A program made the position numbers and the translations under genes. DNA of 28,394 nt from a virus (lineage: Duplodnaviria > Caudoviricetes): IMG/VR virus record IMGVR_UViG_3300021968_000007, positions 1-28,394 of that record; one strand, written 5' to 3'. Positions 2,056-28,394 of the stretch are shown in pieces. The notes under the pieces were generated by a model. It saw nothing but the letters and a program-made list of their open reading frames with translations, did not search any database and was not told where the DNA came from. Every line of letters starts with the position of its first letter. The first letter of the stretch is position 1.

Positions 2056-2283
2056 CTACTCAGTAGGGCTTTTAAATTCTTCCATCACGACTGATGGTTT
2101 TATTTGATCGCAAGGTTTTTTAATTATCCATTCATGGTCTCTATCGCTTATGAAGCATGAAGTTAACGCATGGCCACCTATTGGATTTTCAATTCGAGTA
2201 TAAACAATCCATCCACCTATTACAGCCACTCGCCAGCTATAGTTATCTAAATATTCTTCTTCCCACGCAATCTTAGTTCTCAT
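2056..2283 (-). CDS. Hypothetical phage protein with WE...R.xV.GGW motif
   Basis: ORF track; last gene of leftward operon; motif shared with 2715..3200. Confidence 0.7.
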   Translation of the reverse strand: MRTKIAWEEEYLDNYSWRVAVIGGWIVYTRIENPIGGHALTSCFISDRDHEWIIKKPCDQIKPSVVMEEFKSPTE

Positions 2284-2510
2284 TACAACAAAACCTTAAT
2301 CAAATTAATAATACTTGGGTGCGTTCCCTCTAGATCCTGTTTAAGCTTCAATACAAGCTTCGTGGCGAACTTTAGGTCTGCCAGGAGCACTTCTGGGCTC
2401 GGATCTTGGTACGTCTCTCTAATGTGATCTATGGCCTCTATAATAGGGCTATTCGCTATCTCATCTTTAATGTCGGACATATAATATATTCCCAAGGTTA
2501 GTTCTTCCAT
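2283..2510 (-). CDS. Hypothetical protein (alternative start ATG at 2480)
   Basis: ORF track; TAATG overlap with the downstream gene. Confidence 0.65.
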   Translation of the reverse strand: MEELTLGIYYMSDIKDEIANSPIIEAIDHIRETYQDPSPEVLLADLKFATKLVLKLKQDLEGTHPSIINLIKVLL

Positions 2511-2511
2511 T

Positions 2512-2712
2512 TCAGTTTAATTCTTCTTTATACCGCGCCTCAACCATCCTTCTAGCTTCCCAAATATCGGCGGCATAAAAAGGATCGAAAATACCAGTCA
2601 CAAACGGTAAACGTTCATAATTAGCAATCTGGCGGTCATTCACGTACTTCTTCACTTCGATCTGACCTTCGTTGTCTAAATACCCCCAAAATAGTGAACC
2701 TTTAGTTTTCAT
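2512..2712 (-). CDS. Hypothetical phage protein
   Basis: 66-aa ORF tightly packed in the operon (FWGYLD...GQIEVKKY...PFVTGIFDPFYA). Confidence 0.7.
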   Translation of the reverse strand: MKTKGSLFWGYLDNEGQIEVKKYVNDRQIANYERLPFVTGIFDPFYAADIWEARRMVEARYKEELN

Positions 2713-2714
2713 AT

Positions 2715-3200
2715 TTAATTGTCATCGAGTGAGTTTGAAAGGATGTCTTTTTTCTTAATATCACAAATCGAGCAATGAGTTACCAAGCCATGAATACAAG
2801 AAGGCAATTGCTGAGGTGGAAAAGTTGGTATACACATTGCTTCTAATGCTTCCTTCACTTCTTTAGCTATTTCAGCTTCATTGGCTTTTTTAATGTGTTC
2901 ACCAAAAGCAATGTCTCTTTCTGCAAGATCTGTAGTTGTGAATTGCCTAGAATCAGATGAATCCATAAAATAAGCTTTATCTGGCATTTCTTTTTTTGCT
3001 GCTTGATAGCCTTGATTATAAGCATCTTTAATGTGGTGTGCGAAGACTTCTAATGAATTATCAGGTACGAAAACAATATGTGTATTTCTTCTCGGATGTA
3101 TATCTACATAATATAACCATCCGCCAGATACTTTTAATCGTTCAGTAGTCGCAGACGGAGTTTCATTTACTTTTTCCCATTGTTCGGTATTTTCACTCAT
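2715..3200 (-). CDS. Hypothetical protein; N-terminal GGW-motif domain, C-terminal CxH-x5-CxxC motif
   Basis: WEKVNETPSATTERLKVSGGWLYY...IVFVPD and SCIHGLVTHCSICD. Confidence 0.7.
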   Translation of the reverse strand: MSENTEQWEKVNETPSATTERLKVSGGWLYYVDIHPRRNTHIVFVPDNSLEVFAHHIKDAYNQGYQAAKKEMPDKAYFMDSSDSRQFTTTDLAERDIAFGEHIKKANEAEIAKEVKEALEAMCIPTFPPQQLPSCIHGLVTHCSICDIKKKDILSNSLDDN

Positions 3201-3453
3201 GAGTTTCTATAATCCTTATTGCTTCTGAGATAATTCGTCTACGCTTCTTTTGAATGATTAATGGTTTATGAGAAATTCCTTTTTTTTTAGCTTCAGCTTT
3301 ATCTCTTTCTCTTAATTCGGATCTCAAAACTTTAACATCTTTTGGAGCGATAATGCCTATTTTCACTTGATCCCCGCTAATCCTACCTACTACTATTTCG
3401 ATAGTATCACCTATACGAATCCGTTTTTGAGGTGTCCGTGTCAACCACAACAT
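3193..3453 (-). CDS. csrA: CsrA/RsmA-family carbon storage regulator (RNA-binding translational regulator)
   Basis: MLWLTR...IRIGDTIEIVVGRISGDQVKIGIIAPKDVKVLRSEL aligns with the CsrA signature (MLILTR..GE.I.IGD...V....G.QV.IGI.APK.V.V.REE). Confidence 0.92.
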   Translation of the reverse strand: MLWLTRTPQKRIRIGDTIEIVVGRISGDQVKIGIIAPKDVKVLRSELRERDKAEAKKKGISHKPLIIQKKRRRIISEAIRIIETHE

Positions 3454-3465
3454 CCTTTCCCTTCC

Positions 3466-3588
3466 TTATTTCGCATGCATCCAAAAATTAATGATTAAAA
3501 GTAATATAAATCCCACAACACTAACAACAATACCTAACGCCAATACCCAGCTTAATAATTCTAGCAAGATATGATTTATTTTTCTCAT
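3466..3588 (-). CDS. Small single-pass membrane protein (40 aa)
   Basis: Below ORF-track cutoff: MRKINHILLELLSWVLALGIVVSVVGFILLLIINFWMHAK; ATGA overlap with the upstream gene. Confidence 0.6.
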   Translation of the reverse strand: MRKINHILLELLSWVLALGIVVSVVGFILLLIINFWMHAK

Positions 3589-3737
3589 TTACATAAGTCT
3601 TTATACATGCTTTCAATTTCCTTTAATCGTTGGTAACAGTCATCATGCAACAATGCAGGATCTTTTCCACCAACATAAAAAATCTCTATTCCTACAGCCG
3701 TAGACTTCTTGCACTCAGGACATAGATTCCCCAGCAT
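3585..3737 (-). CDS. Putative zinc-binding microprotein (CxxC...HxxC, 50 aa)
   Basis: MLGNLCPECKKSTAVGIEIFYVGGKDPALLHDDCYQRLKEIESMYKDLCK; AAGGA RBS. Confidence 0.65.
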   Translation of the reverse strand: MLGNLCPECKKSTAVGIEIFYVGGKDPALLHDDCYQRLKEIESMYKDLCK

Positions 3738-3864
3738 TTTCCTTTAACCTCTCATAGCAACTAGAATGTAAAATCGTTGGCAATTCTATACCTAATGTAA
3801 ACCAAATCTTACTTATTCCCCATATCTCTTTGTTACATTCTTTGCATAATGGTTTTTCAATCAT
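3715..3864 (-). CDS. Putative zinc-binding microprotein (CxxC...HxxC, 49 aa), paralogue of 3585..3737
   Basis: MIEKPLCKECNKEIWGISKIWFTLGIELPTILHSSCYERLKENAGESMS; ATGA overlap with the upstream gene. Confidence 0.6.
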   Translation of the reverse strand: MIEKPLCKECNKEIWGISKIWFTLGIELPTILHSSCYERLKENAGESMS

Positions 3865-4043
3865 TTAAAAATGATCCTTTCTTTTTTACAATGCCTACAC
3901 ACCCACATATATGTTTTATAAGGAGGTAATTTTATATTATTTAATTTTGGAAATCTTGAAATAATAGCGGGTTGCACTGTAACAGCAACTAATTCCTCTT
4001 CATGATATCTTAACTTACATAGGATTTTACGAAACAATTTCAT
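3861..4043 (-). CDS. DUF1660-like prophage protein
   Basis: ILCKLRYH...WVCRHCKKE pattern (LCxxxxH...CxxC). Confidence 0.6.
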   Translation of the reverse strand: MKLFRKILCKLRYHEEELVAVTVQPAIISRFPKLNNIKLPPYKTYMWVCRHCKKERIIFK

Positions 4044-4459
4044 TTAAGCGTAACTTTAATAGAATATGGACTTATGATTTTTTTAGGTTCATAACCTATT
4101 ACCTCAGTTTCGACTATAAATCCGTATGAATTTGCAAAATCAAACCTAGGTTCGGAATAGGTATTAAAGTTATTATGCCAAACTGTATTAGGACGCACAT
4201 TAATTGTACCGGTTTTGTGATCGCAATCTGTACGGTTACCTAGCCGCGTAACGCACATTAAATAACTATACTTATAAGCATGTGGTTTATTTGTATTGTT
4301 TTTAATTTGTATACGATGATAGCCCTTGATAGGACATCTATGGTTAACATAACACCCTGATGTAACATTATTACTTGTTGCAGATAAAATAATATTATCG
4401 GCATAAACATTCATCGCTACAAATAATGATAAGCTAACTATAGTTTTTTTTATTAACAT
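4040..4459 (-). CDS. Putative exported protein with signal peptide
   Basis: MLIKKTIVSLSLFVAMNVYA-D signal-peptide pattern; four Cys in the mature region; beta-rich. Confidence 0.7.
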   Translation of the reverse strand: MLIKKTIVSLSLFVAMNVYADNIILSATSNNVTSGCYVNHRCPIKGYHRIQIKNNTNKPHAYKYSYLMCVTRLGNRTDCDHKTGTINVRPNTVWHNNFNTYSEPRFDFANSYGFIVETEVIGYEPKKIISPYSIKVTLK

Positions 4460-4460
4460 T

Positions 4461-4616
4461 TTATTTCCTTTCCATCTCTTTAATTAAATCTTGTGCATCA
4501 CATGCAAGACATTCATCTTTACATAAACAACAACTTTCTTTAGCTACTCGTTCAACAATAGAAAATAATTTAGGAAGTAATTCCATGAATTTATCGAATG
4601 GCATGCTTACATTCAT
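4461..4616 (-). CDS. Cys-rich microprotein (51 aa)
   Basis: MNVSMPFDKFMELLPKLFSIVERVAKESCCLCKDECLACDAQDLIKEMERK; ATGA coupling. Confidence 0.6.
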   Translation of the reverse strand: MNVSMPFDKFMELLPKLFSIVERVAKESCCLCKDECLACDAQDLIKEMERK

Positions 4617-4763
4617 TTAGCAGTCAACTCTTTATTGTCAATTATCTTTGATTCTTCTATCCATATATGTTCATAAATACAGGATGTTCCATTGCATCGT
4701 TCTGCTTCTTTTGGTCTTATGCAATACATTGTGTGAGTCGTTTCTTTCATTTAGCAGTCAACT
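4612..4763. repeat. 18-bp direct repeat at consecutive gene junctions
   Basis: TTCATTTAGCAGTCAACT at 4612-4629 and 4746-4763. Confidence 0.85.
4613..4750 (-). CDS. Hypothetical microprotein (45 aa)
   Basis: MKETTHTMYCIRPKEAERCNGTSCIYEHIWIEESKIIDNKELTAK; ATGA coupling at both ends. Confidence 0.55.
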   Translation of the reverse strand: MKETTHTMYCIRPKEAERCNGTSCIYEHIWIEESKIIDNKELTAK

Positions 4764-4911
4764 TTCTAAGGGCTAGCCTGAGGTCGTCTATATTACAAAT
4801 ATTAGATGTTCTTGCATCTCTATATTCTGTATTCTTGATTATAATTTTAATTTCTTTATTATTGTAAGATTCAATTGAAACCGTATCATTCAGCTCTATT
4901 ATCACTTTCAT
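4747..4911 (-). CDS. Hypothetical microprotein (54 aa)
   Basis: MKVIIELNDTVSIESYNNKEIKIIIKNTEYRDARTSNICNIDDLRLALRKLTAK; AAGGA RBS. Confidence 0.6.
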   Translation of the reverse strand: MKVIIELNDTVSIESYNNKEIKIIIKNTEYRDARTSNICNIDDLRLALRKLTAK

Positions 4912-4920
4912 TGGTTTCCT

Positions 4921-5142
4921 TTATAATTTCCAGTATCCATTTTCATCTTTACATCCGCACTTCTTTAAATCATCTTTTAATGTAGTTAAATCAAATCCTG
5001 AAAGTCTTTTCATATGTCTCTCGAGTACAGCTCGAAATGAATAGATGACGGATTTTTGTCTATCAATTGTATCAACCATAGAACTTAGTGTTTCTCCAAA
5101 TATTTTCATATCTTCTAAATCTATTTCTTGGTTACTCATCAT
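4921..5142 (-). CDS. Hypothetical protein
   Basis: ORF track; GGAAGG RBS; co-oriented with the operon. Confidence 0.65.
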   Translation of the reverse strand: MMSNQEIDLEDMKIFGETLSSMVDTIDRQKSVIYSFRAVLERHMKRLSGFDLTTLKDDLKKCGCKDENGYWKL

Positions 5143-5177
5143 TTACCTTCCGACTATTTTATCGCTACTCGCTAATT

Positions 5178-5261
5178 TGGTGGCAATAGACTGGCTTATC
5201 CAATCGGCTTCGAGTCGACTCTCGTTAACTCCTCACACGCGTATAGTGAGACGCTATTGCC
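5178..5261 (-). ncRNA. tRNA-like cloverleaf RNA with encoded 3' CCA (non-canonical, no standard anticodon or T loop)
   Basis: GGCAATA GCGT CTCAC TATACGCGT GTGAG GAGTTAAC GAGA GTCGACTC GAAGCC GATTGG ATAAG CCAGTC TATTGCC A CCA: 7-bp acceptor stem, three arms, discriminator and CCA; fills the only large gap in the operon. Confidence 0.6.
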
Positions 5262-5267
5262 CCACAC

Positions 5268-5483
5268 TTATTTCTCTACAAATTTAAACTCTAAAGCTTC
5301 TTTCATATTTCTAATTTGCTCAATCACAAATTCCCGTGCATGATTCTCGAATGGTTCCCATATGTCAACATCAGGACTATTATTCTCAATCATCATTAAT
5401 ACTTCTTCATAGCTAGTATCTTCTGGCCATGCAGTCAAAAAGCTCGCTAACGCAAAGTTTTCATAAACAGTTACTAATTTCAT
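5268..5483 (-). CDS. Hypothetical acidic protein
   Basis: ORF track; GGGGAG RBS; ATGA coupling. Confidence 0.7.
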   Translation of the reverse strand: MKLVTVYENFALASFLTAWPEDTSYEEVLMMIENNSPDVDIWEPFENHAREFVIEQIRNMKEALEFKFVEK

Positions 5484-5680
5484 CCTTGCATCTCCCCTGC
5501 CACGGCTCTCGATAGCTCATCCCACTGCGCCTCACTAAACACATAGTCAACCTCAAGTATCTCTCGGAAATTCTCACGATGACGTAACGCATACAAAGCT
5601 TCATCATTAAACACCAACAACTTAAGCTCACCTTCCGTATAACGCCTTATATCTATCAACCCTACATTTAATGAGATCAT
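5480..5680 (-). CDS. Hypothetical phage protein
   Basis: ORF track; GGAG RBS; ELKLLVFNDEALY motif. Confidence 0.7.
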   Translation of the reverse strand: MISLNVGLIDIRRYTEGELKLLVFNDEALYALRHRENFREILEVDYVFSEAQWDELSRAVAGEMQG

Positions 5681-5862
5681 GCGCGCTCTCCTGCAAATGC
5701 CAATGTGCTGCGCGAATGCTCATATAAATACTGCGCCTCACTCAACGTCGCAGCTCGATACAGCCTATGCAAAAATCCTATCCGAGCCTTGAATGCTTTC
5801 CACTCTCCTTTACTCTTAATTAATTCTTCTAACTCAACTTGTCTCTCTAACGTTATCCGCAT
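5677..5862 (-). CDS. Hypothetical protein, first gene of the leftward operon
   Basis: ORF track; CAGGAGA RBS at 5871-5877. Confidence 0.7.
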   Translation of the reverse strand: MRITLERQVELEELIKSKGEWKAFKARIGFLHRLYRAATLSEAQYLYEHSRSTLAFAGERA

Positions 5863-5891: not shown

Positions 5892-5920
5892 ACTATAACC
5901 GCACACAATACTATTGTCAA
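5892..5920 (-). promoter_or_regulatory. Strong sigma70-type promoter of the leftward (early) operon
   Basis: Minus strand TTGACA (5920-5915), 17-nt spacer, TATAGT (5897-5892). Confidence 0.85.
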
Positions 5921-6199: not shown

Positions 6200-6367
6200 T
6201 TAGAGATTCGTGCCGTAGCTTCTTGGGGATTGCTGGATATCGTAGAGCCTTCGGTAGTTAACGGCGAGGTACCTGAAGGCATCGGCGATGTGGACTGCCC
6301 AGTTGTCGAGTGGCTTCTTGGAGAAAGCAGCCCTTTCCTCGTCGTAGGATCGCTGGTACTCTCTCAA
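6200..6367 (-). pseudogene. 3' end (55 codons plus stop) of the terminase large subunit gene, inverted relative to terL
   Basis: Reads LREYQRSYDEERAAFSKKPLDNWAVHIADAFRYLAVNYRRLYDIQQSPRSYGTNL*; its first part is identical to the terL sequence at the window end; includes the HxADAFRY nuclease-domain motif. Confidence 0.9.
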
Positions 6368-6369
6368 CG
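6294..6369 (-). repeat. Exact 76-bp inverted repeat of 28319..28394
   Basis: Reverse complement is CGTTGAGAGAGTACCAGCGATCC...GACAACTGGGCAGT, identical to the last 76 nt of the window. Confidence 0.97.
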
Positions 6370-6748: not shown

Positions 6749-7221
6749 GGGATATTACTCTTAAACCTATGGTAATTACCTATTGCATTATTCCAATCAG
6801 CCTTTCCAGCTAGGGTATTGTAGTATGTTTTATAGTATTTCCATATAGCATCGGTATCAGTATACTTGGGTAATGGCTCAGGAATACGAGCATAGAAGAC
6901 TCTAGTCATAGCTGTGGCAAATCTTAAATCATAGACTAGACGATCTTCATTAGGCATATAAGAAGCATCAAAGTTCTGAATAAACTTTAAATAAAGAGAA
7001 CCTTTTTTAGCAATATAATTCTGCCAGAGATCGTTATACGTTTTCGGTTCCATTTGATAGATACCTAAAGCTGGGCCTTGAATTTGATGTAGATAGGTGC
7101 CACCTAGTGATTCATTAGCACAAGTGAATACCATTAACTCAACTGCATCATCCGATAGTAACTGCAAATCATATAGAGCACGCTTTATAATAAACTCAGT
7201 TAACTGACCACAATTCAGCAT
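6745..7221 (-). CDS. Lysozyme-fold / lytic transglycosylase-like protein (putative endolysin)
   Basis: TCANESLGG (catalytic ES), GPALGIYQMEPKTY, and YYKTYYNT motifs typical of a phage lysozyme-like family. Confidence 0.7.
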   Translation of the reverse strand: MLNCGQLTEFIIKRALYDLQLLSDDAVELMVFTCANESLGGTYLHQIQGPALGIYQMEPKTYNDLWQNYIAKKGSLYLKFIQNFDASYMPNEDRLVYDLRFATAMTRVFYARIPEPLPKYTDTDAIWKYYKTYYNTLAGKADWNNAIGNYHRFKSNIP

Positions 7222-7283
7222 GTCTTTTTATTCCCCATGAAATAGACTACAATTAGATCAATTTTATCAGGATAGATAACCTT

Positions 7284-7892
7284 ATGAAAGTTGATGCGAA
7301 AGCTTTATACGAGAAATTGAAAGCTGGCGGCACAAAATATGATGAAGAAATACATTGCGAATTGCTATTAAAGATAATGGCAGATGTCGAGAAAAGCAGA
7401 TTAAGTGCTTTTTGTGTAGAAGTAGGAATTGGTGAAAGTACATTTTATGATTGGGTCAAAAGATATCCTATATTTGCTTTGTCTTATGCATTAGGTAAAG
7501 CTTTATCCCGTGAGAATTGGGAAGAAGAAGGTAGAAGACTTAAAGATAAAATCATGATGCCTGGAACAACTGGATATTCATTTGAATATTGGCGTATGGT
7601 TGGATGGTCAAGATTTGGCATTGGTAAGACTTGTAAAATCAAATTAGATTTAGACCCACAAGGCAAACCAACAGATCATTACTCTCAATTAATCAAACAA
7701 GCTAATAATGGTGAATTCACTGCTAGTGAAATTAAGCAGCTGATGGAAGCACTAAGTCTTGGTTTGAAAACACAGCAAACAGTCGATATGCAAAAAGAAA
7801 TTGATGATCTAAAAGCCGATCTAATTACAATGGCTGAGAATAGCAATGGCAACAATAGTTTCGCAGATAAAAGAGCTAAGAAAAAAGATTAG
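7284..7892 (+). CDS. Putative terminase small subunit (HTH DNA-packaging protein)
   Basis: TKYDEEIHCELL...SAFCVEVGIGESTFYDWVKRYPIFA...WEEEG resembles the TerS N-terminal HTH; lies upstream of the portal. Confidence 0.65.
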   Translation: MKVDAKALYEKLKAGGTKYDEEIHCELLLKIMADVEKSRLSAFCVEVGIGESTFYDWVKRYPIFALSYALGKALSRENWEEEGRRLKDKIMMPGTTGYSFEYWRMVGWSRFGIGKTCKIKLDLDPQGKPTDHYSQLIKQANNGEFTASEIKQLMEALSLGLKTQQTVDMQKEIDDLKADLITMAENSNGNNSFADKRAKKKD

Positions 7893-27228: not shown

Positions 27229-28394
27229 ATGTTTAAGGCGCTTATGCTGGGAAAAAACATTTGCGCTGTTATTCATCGGCGCGCTGGTAAAGATATATTC
27301 TGCTTAGAAGCGTGGAATCTTAGAGGGTTACAAAGAATAGGAACCCACGTTTATTTATTCCCTCTCTACTCTCAAGCAAGAAACGTAATTTGGAAGGGTA
27401 TGGATTACGATGGTAAGCCTTTTCTGTCTGCTATTCCTGACGCTCTTATCGATAAAAAAAATGAAGCTAGAATGGAAATTACTATGTTTAATGGTTCTCG
27501 TCTCATTCTTGCTGGTTCTAATTCTTATGATTCATTAATGGGAACAAACCCCGTAACAATTATTTATTCTGAATTTGCTTTGCATAATCCATTAGCTCGG
27601 CAATATCTCAATCCTATTCTTTTACAGAATAAGGGAGTCGAGATCATCAATTCAACTCCTCGAGGAATGAATCATTTATATGATGTCTATAACGTTGTTA
27701 AAGATAATCCAAAATATCATTGTGAACATTTATCTATAGAGCAAACTCAAAAGCATGATGGTTCTAGAATCTTTACTGAAGAAGATTTACGCCAAGCTAA
27801 AGCTATGGGTATGTCTGAGGAAATGATACGTCAGGAATTGTATTGCGATTTCGAAGTAGGAAACCTAGGCGCATATTATACCCGTGAAATGGGTGATATG
27901 GAACGCGAAGGACGCATCATGACGCTTCGCGCTGATACATCACTACCTTTGCATTCTGTATGGGATTTAGGTGGCACAGATGCAACCGCAGGTCTTCTAT
28001 TTCAGGTTGTTGGTCGATACATACATGTGCTTCATGTGTTGCATGATACAGGGCGTGGACTTCGATATTATCTCGATCAAGCAGAACAAATACGGCAATC
28101 TGTTATGTGTGTCTGGGGTCAACATTGGATGCCGCATGACGTAAATCAACAACATCAAGGTTGGGAGCATACCGAATCACGAATTATGCAAGCTCGCAAA
28201 CACGGGTGGCATTTACAAGTTGTTCCTAAAGTAAATTTCGAAGATGGTATCGAAGCTGTGCGCTACATGCTACCACGCACACGTATATGCAATCTTAACG
28301 CCTCGATAGGAATAAGGGCGTTGAGAGAGTACCAGCGATCCTACGACGAGGAAAGGGCTGCTTTCTCCAAGAAGCCACTCGACAACTGGGCAGT
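27229..28394 (+). CDS. terL: Terminase large subunit (3' truncated; frame is open from 27178, start uncertain)
   Basis: Not in ORF track. Walker A-region IHRRAGKD, Walker B IIYSEFA, NSTPRGMNH, RQELYCDF, WDLGGTDATA, MPHD. Confidence 0.95.
   Translation, partial: MFKALMLGKNICAVIHRRAGKDIFCLEAWNLRGLQRIGTHVYLFPLYSQARNVIWKGMDYDGKPFLSAIPDALIDKKNEARMEITMFNGSRLILAGSNSYDSLMGTNPVTIIYSEFALHNPLARQYLNPILLQNKGVEIINSTPRGMNHLYDVYNVVKDNPKYHCEHLSIEQTQKHDGSRIFTEEDLRQAKAMGMSEEMIRQELYCDFEVGNLGAYYTREMGDMEREGRIMTLRADTSLPLHSVWDLGGTDATAGLLFQVVGRYIHVLHVLHDTGRGLRYYLDQAEQIRQSVMCVWGQHWMPHDVNQQHQGWEHTESRIMQARKHGWHLQVVPKVNFEDGIEAVRYMLPRTRICNLNASIGIRALREYQRSYDEERAAFSKKPLDNWA
28319..28394 (+). repeat. Exact 76-bp inverted repeat of 6294..6369
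   Basis: Base-for-base reverse complement of 6294-6369. Confidence 0.97.

Follow-up and report, generated by a model that had tools for sequence, protein, structure and literature searches.

An 84-nt element in the early operon of an uncultured soil phage is supported as a real structured RNA that lies outside all Rfam families, with a tRNA-like top half and without an anticodon. That it is a functional structured RNA we regard as nearly certain. The window (the whole stretch of DNA analysed, 28,394 nt) comes from a podophage. The record is linear and about 85% complete, and it encodes RusA, CsrA, a major head protein and a head-tail connector of the T7 type. The RNA gene, which we call family B, reads along the minus strand from 5261 (the 5′ G) to 5178 (the final A of ACCA). 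Its parts and surroundings are as follows:

5178..5261, minus: RNA gene of family B, called from its fold, homologues L119:1001-1087 (minus) and L122:1442-1527 (minus), and covariation
5254..5261, minus: closing (acceptor-like) stem, 5′ strand, 7 or 8 bp; 8/8 pairs kept in three sequences, 3 of them compensatory
5251..5254, minus: GCGU linker, invariant in 3/3; can pair with the arm 1 loop (pseudoknot or alternative hairpin)
5232..5250, minus: arm 1 (D-arm position), 5-bp stem with 9-nt loop; 3/5 pairs compensatory
5237-5245, minus: 9-nt loop of arm 1, containing a 6-nt palindrome; identical in 3/3
5212..5231, minus: arm 2 (anticodon-arm position), variable hairpin; pair probability about 0.48; outside the consensus structure
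5190..5204, minus: 3′ arm (T-arm position), 5-bp stem, 5-nt loop closed by G-C, no TTC; 4/5 pairs compensatory
5182..5189, minus: closing stem, 3′ strand; same pair alignment as the 5′ strand
5178..5181, minus: discriminator A and encoded CCA; ACCA in L119, GCCC in L122
5262..5267, minus: 6-nt leader after the upstream stop codon; G at -1 and -2, predicted pairing with CCA
5268..5483, minus: upstream early ORF, 71 aa, no family; 42% homologue in L002
4921..5142, minus: downstream early ORF, 73 aa, no family; Shine-Dalgarno (SD) sequence within the 35 nt behind CCA
5892..5920, minus: likely early promoter of the RNA-bearing operon; consensus match only, 11/12

The gene occupies a 125-nt gap (5143-5267) separating two early ORFs in a leftward run of small ORFs. 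It is sense to this operon, beginning 6 nt after the upstream stop and ending 35 nt ahead of the downstream start. The remaining junctions within 2056-5862 measure at most 12 nt or overlap, so that the element does fill the only large gap of the operon, in the sense direction, as an initial annotation of the sequence had proposed. The CsrA gene of the window (3193-3453, minus; PF02599, E 8e-19) belongs to the same operon, and CsrA also occurs in L003 and L013. Protein searches with both flanking ORFs and CsrA returned the window's own proteins only, and searches of the loci with CsrA and the downstream ORF gave zero relatives. An 80-aa plus-strand ORF over the element was rejected as a gene: its likeness in L119 amounts to 18 residues of shared DNA, and there is none in L122.

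Contigs of soil DNA runs confirm the letters of the window. One, from run X1, spans 4796-5515 with zero differences, and the DNA of the element is therefore not an assembly error.

The minus strand of 5261-5178 folds into a cloverleaf of -28.0 kcal/mol (z -2.87, equalled by 1 of 200 shuffles); folding of the plus strand is ordinary (z -0.80). The 7-bp acceptor with A-CCA, the 5-bp arm with a 9-nt loop and the other helices that had been listed for this stretch are all present, and they belong to the minus strand, which the listing had not specified. A descriptor of seven Watson-Crick pairs, a 5-bp arm, a 7-nt loop and NCCA was run on 1500 shuffled windows and matched 26 times by chance, with a cloverleaf fold as well in five of those. 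Such a match by itself is suggestive, not decisive, being too frequent in shuffles to survive a scan of many windows. We accept the element as real despite this chance rate because its homologues settle the question.

ARAGORN found no tRNA or tmRNA match for the element. Rfam has no family over the window, nor over the 171 bases around the element at E 10, and a direct search with the RF00005 (tRNA) model at E 10 left it unmatched. A hit to a known tRNA or Rfam family would have removed the novelty of the RNA.

Homologues, covariation and anatomy

Two pattern searches of viral contigs were made. A pattern for the two acceptor strands gave 14 matches: L119, which shares the entire 5′ half of the element; five members of a sister family; and eight that were dropped for having no fold or lying inside ORFs. 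Five came from a second pattern, which covered only the linker and loop: the record of L119, L122 and three that were dropped. A covariance model built from the window copy alone scored L119 at 64.4 bits (E 2e-16) and L122 at 48.2 bits (E 1e-11); its best score on 15 dropped pattern loci was 10.2 bits (E 2.3).

In the three-way alignment all 18 pairs (eight in the acceptor, five in arm 1, five in the 3′ arm) are standard in all three sequences, and 10 of the 18 are compensatory, changed on both sides, with G-U pairs among them. None of 500 shuffles equalled this conservation, a count that with only three sequences is not a probability, and slid controls were 31-45% paired. Pattern searching fixed the acceptor in L119; it put no constraint on the outer pairs of arm 1 or, in L122, on the acceptor and 3′ arm. 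The check for homologues and covariation proposed with the initial annotation thus came out in favour of the RNA.

We considered whether the element might instead be a chance fold or a site acting at the DNA level (promoter, operator or hairpin). The shuffled windows with CCA cloverleaves point that way, as does the resemblance of the loop, on the opposite strand, to a -10 hexamer. Covariation that includes G-U pairs and the location of one member in a tRNA cluster argue against this, no promoter-like site was called at the element, and the idea is scarcely credible.

Wider searches added no members. The family B model found only the known member G006 over 50 related records (0 of the 49 others) and nothing on MAGs (0/3). 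A metagenome pattern search gave five matches, one being the window's own record and four being dropped. By blastn the element matched nothing in annotated phages and had one 26-nt chance match in plasmids. All ten exact matches to a 16-base 3′ pattern in viral contigs were rejected as homologues, being chance matches without the fold. Family B is rare, with three members in total among the records searched. A literature search, with most subscription papers outside its reach, returned no paper on family B or on CCA-ended RNA arrays; the family is apparently undescribed and is probably a variant of the RNase P-matured phage RNAs.

The alignment changes the picture of the RNA in two respects. 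The GNRA-capped arm, which had been taken as a defining part, is not supported as one: the GAGA tetraloop of arm 2 occurs in the window copy only, and the arm is missing from both homologues. The 3′ arm does stack on the acceptor as described; the helix so formed is not the 12-bp acceptor plus T helix that was supposed, but has 13 bp (8+5 or 7+6) and is closed by a 5-nt loop in 3/3 members. The two registers fit equally, and the pairs that would decide between them never vary.

Short invariant patches follow the arm 1 loop in all three members, and an invariant stretch of 13 nt stands at a distance from the presumed cut sites. In 3/3 members the linker can pair with four bases of the arm 1 loop; these pairs never vary, so they have no covariation support. 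In folding calculations the linker-loop hairpin is preferred for the two homologues (0.90-0.96) and arm 1 for the window copy (0.87). Because arm 1 covaries, the RNA probably uses both pairings, in a small pseudoknot or as alternatives. The invariance of the loop can be explained through internal pairing alone. A kissing dimer through the loop palindrome, calculated at -7.9 kcal/mol loop-loop, exists on paper only and has no independent support. A computed test of D-loop/T-loop pairing yielded no stable duplex.

Against the features of a tRNA, the family has a 7-bp acceptor and an NCCA end (GCCC in L122). It has no 7-nt UUCRA-type T-loop, no 12-bp branch and no anticodon stem with a 7-nt loop and U33; the absence of TTC and of a 7-nt anticodon loop had been noted before and is confirmed, the latter in 3/3 members. 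A charged or decoding tRNA of non-canonical, allo-tRNA-like form would account for an 8-bp acceptor reading, the NCCA end and a place in a tRNA cluster, and 8/4 tRNAs exist in phages according to the available text of PMC5389517. Such a tRNA is nonetheless highly improbable here: besides the missing anticodon loop, family B has no long V-arm, its 13-bp branch carries a 5-nt loop, the discriminator is A or G, pair 2 differs between members, and RF00005 does not match at E 10. The same differences in pair 2 and discriminator make mimicry for synthetases, one of the roles suggested earlier, doubtful.

The text of Mukai et al. (PMC5389517) describes allo-tRNAs of the 8/4 and 9/3 types and irregular tRNAs in polycistrons, every one with an anticodon arm, as well as clustered irregular tRNA-like genes, some of them unused in translation. 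In its 8+5 register family B would share a longer acceptor with allo-tRNAs, (8/4) tRNA-Ser/His and tRNA-Sec; tRNA-Sec also has a 13-bp branch. From the text descriptions there, the anticodon arm and T-loop are retained in allo-tRNAs, most of which also have a long V-arm, on a branch of 12 bp; family B has none of these. The anticodon arm, the long V-arm and the D-stem with a tetraloop, features of allo-tRNAs and tRNA-Sec, are absent from family B. The tRNA-like domain of tmRNA is similar in its acceptor, T-position arm, CCA and lack of an anticodon; unlike tmRNA, family B has no G3-U70 and no tag ORF. The bacterial Y RNA YrlA, in the available text of PMC4201824, has a tRNA-like domain, is cleavable by RNase P, takes CCA and occurs in phages. 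Family B differs in having no Ro60/TROVE gene in the window record (by a criterion of about 4 kb), no Rfam match and no canonical T-arm.

Settings of the homologues and arrays of CCA-ended RNAs

Both homologues lie in complete genomes, L119 in G001 and L122 in G006, whose head genes are unmatched to those of the window; what they have in common with it is limited to the replication initiator, parts of the tail fibre and a single small protein. The G001 copy closes its operon, behind a Gam-like gene. In G006 the order is tRNA-Met, -Gln, -Pro and -Asn, then the RNA at 8 nt, then terL. Within 5 nt behind the CCA of L119, and not behind the other two members, stands a 9-mer which we take to be similar to a DnaA box, followed by a long AT-rich gap.

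Phages related to the window by portal protein carry further RNAs with such ends. We scanned 17 portal-related records or loci by hand, many of them partial, and found NCCA-type cassettes in seven. G008, G013 and G037 have three cassettes in a row, and G020 has two behind tRNA-Gln. Spacers within the arrays are AU-rich and 5-7 nt long, with no ORF between cassettes. Gene-free arrays of two or three NCCA-ended RNAs are at:

L095:3399-3633
L045:5713-6099, minus
L096, about 2980-3229
L019:103-473
G015, 1597-1762, minus
G007, 7206-7376, minus

The hand-made list has CCA encoded in 18 of 24 cassettes and U at -1 in 21 of the 23 with a readable leader. Part of this list was found via the spacer, so the fair leader count is that of the 11 elements found independently of it: U at -1 in 11/11 and AU at -2/-1 in 10/11. 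The window copy, with G at both positions, is the exception.

The sister family, family A, has nine members of 109-219 nt, with an 8-bp acceptor, a 5-bp T-stem, a 7-nt T-loop and a variable middle:

L035:3191-3299, minus
L019:180-398
L045:5836-5956, minus
L093:1-131
L095:3519-3633
L109, L113, L114 and L115

Covariation is seen at 11 of 18 pairs in five members. Family A has no Rfam match, and blastn against phages gave chance-level matches only. Its model R3 aligns with the window over the acceptor and linker only (15.5 bits) and in a wide search did not match it. The family has its own D-position loop body as well as the 7-nt T-loop; the window RNA has neither. By eye, the D-position loop and the T-loop of family A seem to change jointly.

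At least three further unnamed RNA types occur in the arrays, one of them combining a constant 3′ strand with bodies that range from 59-137 nt. One acceptor sequence type is found in both families, A and B, and also on a 49-nt hairpin RNA (G013) and a 76-nt RNA (G015), making at least four bodies. These phages may hold an exchangeable repertoire of small RNAs on a shared tRNA-like handle (8-bp stem plus NCCA), arranged in the style of a tRNA operon and traded across head-gene types, with family B as one cassette serving as an anti-defence decoy against tRNA-attacking enzymes; we consider this combined scheme somewhat unlikely. The early regions of two relatives also contain degenerate tRNA-like genes with canonical T-arms and odd anticodon arms (L058:1069-1138 and L070:1237-1316).

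In the early operons of L002 and L003 and at 4613-4911 of the window, short repeated start/stop modules flank small early genes. Neighbouring genes there vary between close relatives, as in cassette exchange.

Probable maturation and proposed function

The available text of PMC11143913 gives the determinants of RNase P as residue -1, an RCCA end and the acceptor plus T helix. It also reports that 8-bp acceptors are tolerated, as shown by tRNA-Sec and tRNA-His, and that replacing the T-loop of model substrates lowers and shifts cleavage. Seen with these determinants, the spacers, the leaders and the place in a tRNA cluster make it likely that the family B RNA is matured like a tRNA. The absence of a canonical T-loop and of a D/T elbow speaks against tRNA-type processing. 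For the window copy, G at -1 and -2 and a leader that pairs with CCA could hinder RNase P; when the element is folded with its flanks, the leader is predicted to pair with CCA and the CC has an unpaired probability of 0.0-0.01.

This atypical leader raises another reading, in which the family functions elsewhere and the window copy is a decaying passenger. The RNA is missing from the two closest relatives of the window (85% portal identity), and L002 shows a plain hairpin at the matching place. Decay is very unlikely, however, for a copy with its 18 core pairs and invariant loop intact and CCA encoded, and its joint-model score of 94.5 bits compares with 98.5 and 95.5 for the other members, all three being the training set.

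The proposed course of events is as follows. The early operon would be transcribed from the promoter-like site at 5920-5892, RNase P would make the 5′ cut at 5261, and 3′ release would be followed by trimming to CCA. Pairing of the invariant linker with the invariant loop would give a compact core. Once excised, the RNA would most likely work in trans by binding a host protein that recognises tRNA, as a mimic or decoy of tRNA. A protein such as a tRNA-attacking defence enzyme is our guess for the partner. Whatever the role of the RNA, its excision would leave the early mRNA split in the interval from 5268 to 5142.

That split could itself be the function. In such a scheme the element would act in cis, as a signal for cutting or for stabilisation: its tRNA-like top half would direct RNase P and 3′ nucleases to divide the early mRNA at the junction of genes 3 and 4, leaving an inert RNA. 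A role as a processing signal had been among the initial suggestions; the sense position between two ORFs and the necessary cut of the mRNA agree with it. As a pure signal it is weakened by the homologues, which stand behind a tRNA in G006 and at the operon end in G001. The window has a single copy among about 17 gene junctions, the 13-nt invariant stretch is remote from the cut sites, and other RNAs of this type lie back to back without genes. Behind tRNA-Asn, which would already provide a cut, a cutting signal would be superfluous, and in arrays without genes it would have no purpose; we therefore take the RNA itself to be the product. Punctuation of the mRNA is the weaker reading here, and an inert product is unlikely.

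Free phage RNAs of comparable make-up include antisense regulators. P4 CI RNA is presumably to be grouped with the C4 RNA of P1 as an RNase P-matured antisense RNA from an early transcript. RNase P excises C4 from a longer early transcript, and the loops of C4 pair with target mRNAs (PMC5320573). Like the C4 of P1 and P7, family B is small, phage-encoded and built of a closing stem plus several arms; as a phage RNA that is probably matured by RNase P it also resembles CI and T4 RNA C and D, and it belongs to none of the families tested. An antisense RNA of this kind, with the invariant loop as seed against a host or rival-phage RNA, would fit the length of 84 nt, close to the roughly 77 nt of C4, the RNase P-type closing stem and the exposed conserved loop. 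Family B differs in having no Rfam match, to C4 included, in lacking a target in its own genome, and in occurring in a tRNA cluster as well. No second exact site of at least 8 nt complementary to the loop exists in the window (about 85% complete) or in G001 and G006 (both complete), and the C4/CI-type role inside the phage that had been proposed is not supported. The specificity loop of C4 varies between phages (PMC5320573, in the text available), whereas the family B loop is invariant. We judge an antisense role distinctly unlikely.

T4 RNA C and RNA D lie in a tRNA cluster and have tRNA-like ends. The available text of PMC9697503 describes them as phage small RNAs of unknown function. Family B is unlike them in size, fold and phage group, and it had no blastn match in the phage collection. 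A sponge for CsrA, of the CsrB/RsmY type, was rejected: no loop GGA is conserved, and G001 and G006 have no CsrA gene.

With no decoding, no antisense target in the three genomes and no support for CsrA binding, what is left is a protein ligand with a tRNA-like top half, and a decoy for defence enzymes that recognise tRNA is its most plausible form. For the trans-acting protein ligand or tRNA decoy, taken as a whole chain of steps, we see slightly less than an even chance, and the decoy step in it is a guess. A family of only three members, absent from the two closest relatives, counts against it. In the available text of PMC12673091, retron-Eco7 and PARIS are neutralised by phage tRNAs, which are working tRNAs, not decoys. 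Phage tRNAs blunt tRNA-cleaving defences by replacing tRNA; an RNA such as that of family B, without an anticodon, conserved through covariation, spread across phage types and present inside a tRNA cluster, would be a non-translating counterpart.

Its three natural variants differ by compensatory changes and share an invariant loop, and one of them has an atypical leader, which makes the family a small and inexpensive object for experiment. Judging from the arrays around it, this uncultured phage group seems to have several other RNA families that are undescribed and missing from Rfam.

Genome layout of the window phage

The best portal match in the plasmid collection, a 30-kb Legionella element, has only 26.5% identity. 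The portal also occurs in three GTDB contigs, all short pieces in unrelated MAGs. The final 76 bases of the window (28319-28394) are the reverse complement of 6294-6369, and a minus-strand ORF at 6200-6367 extends the terminase-like frame found at the window end. At 5666 a loose end begins, with higher depth, in three runs. Inverted matches at contig ends are likewise present in 7 of 9 longer portal-related records, and the early segment occurs in either orientation. This suggests a circular genome in which two unique segments lie between copies of a 0.7-1.2-kb inverted repeat and form flip-flop isomers; the repeat would hold the 3′ end of terL and the early promoter. At 2053-2069, between convergent early operons, a perfect hairpin followed by a T run is a likely terminator.
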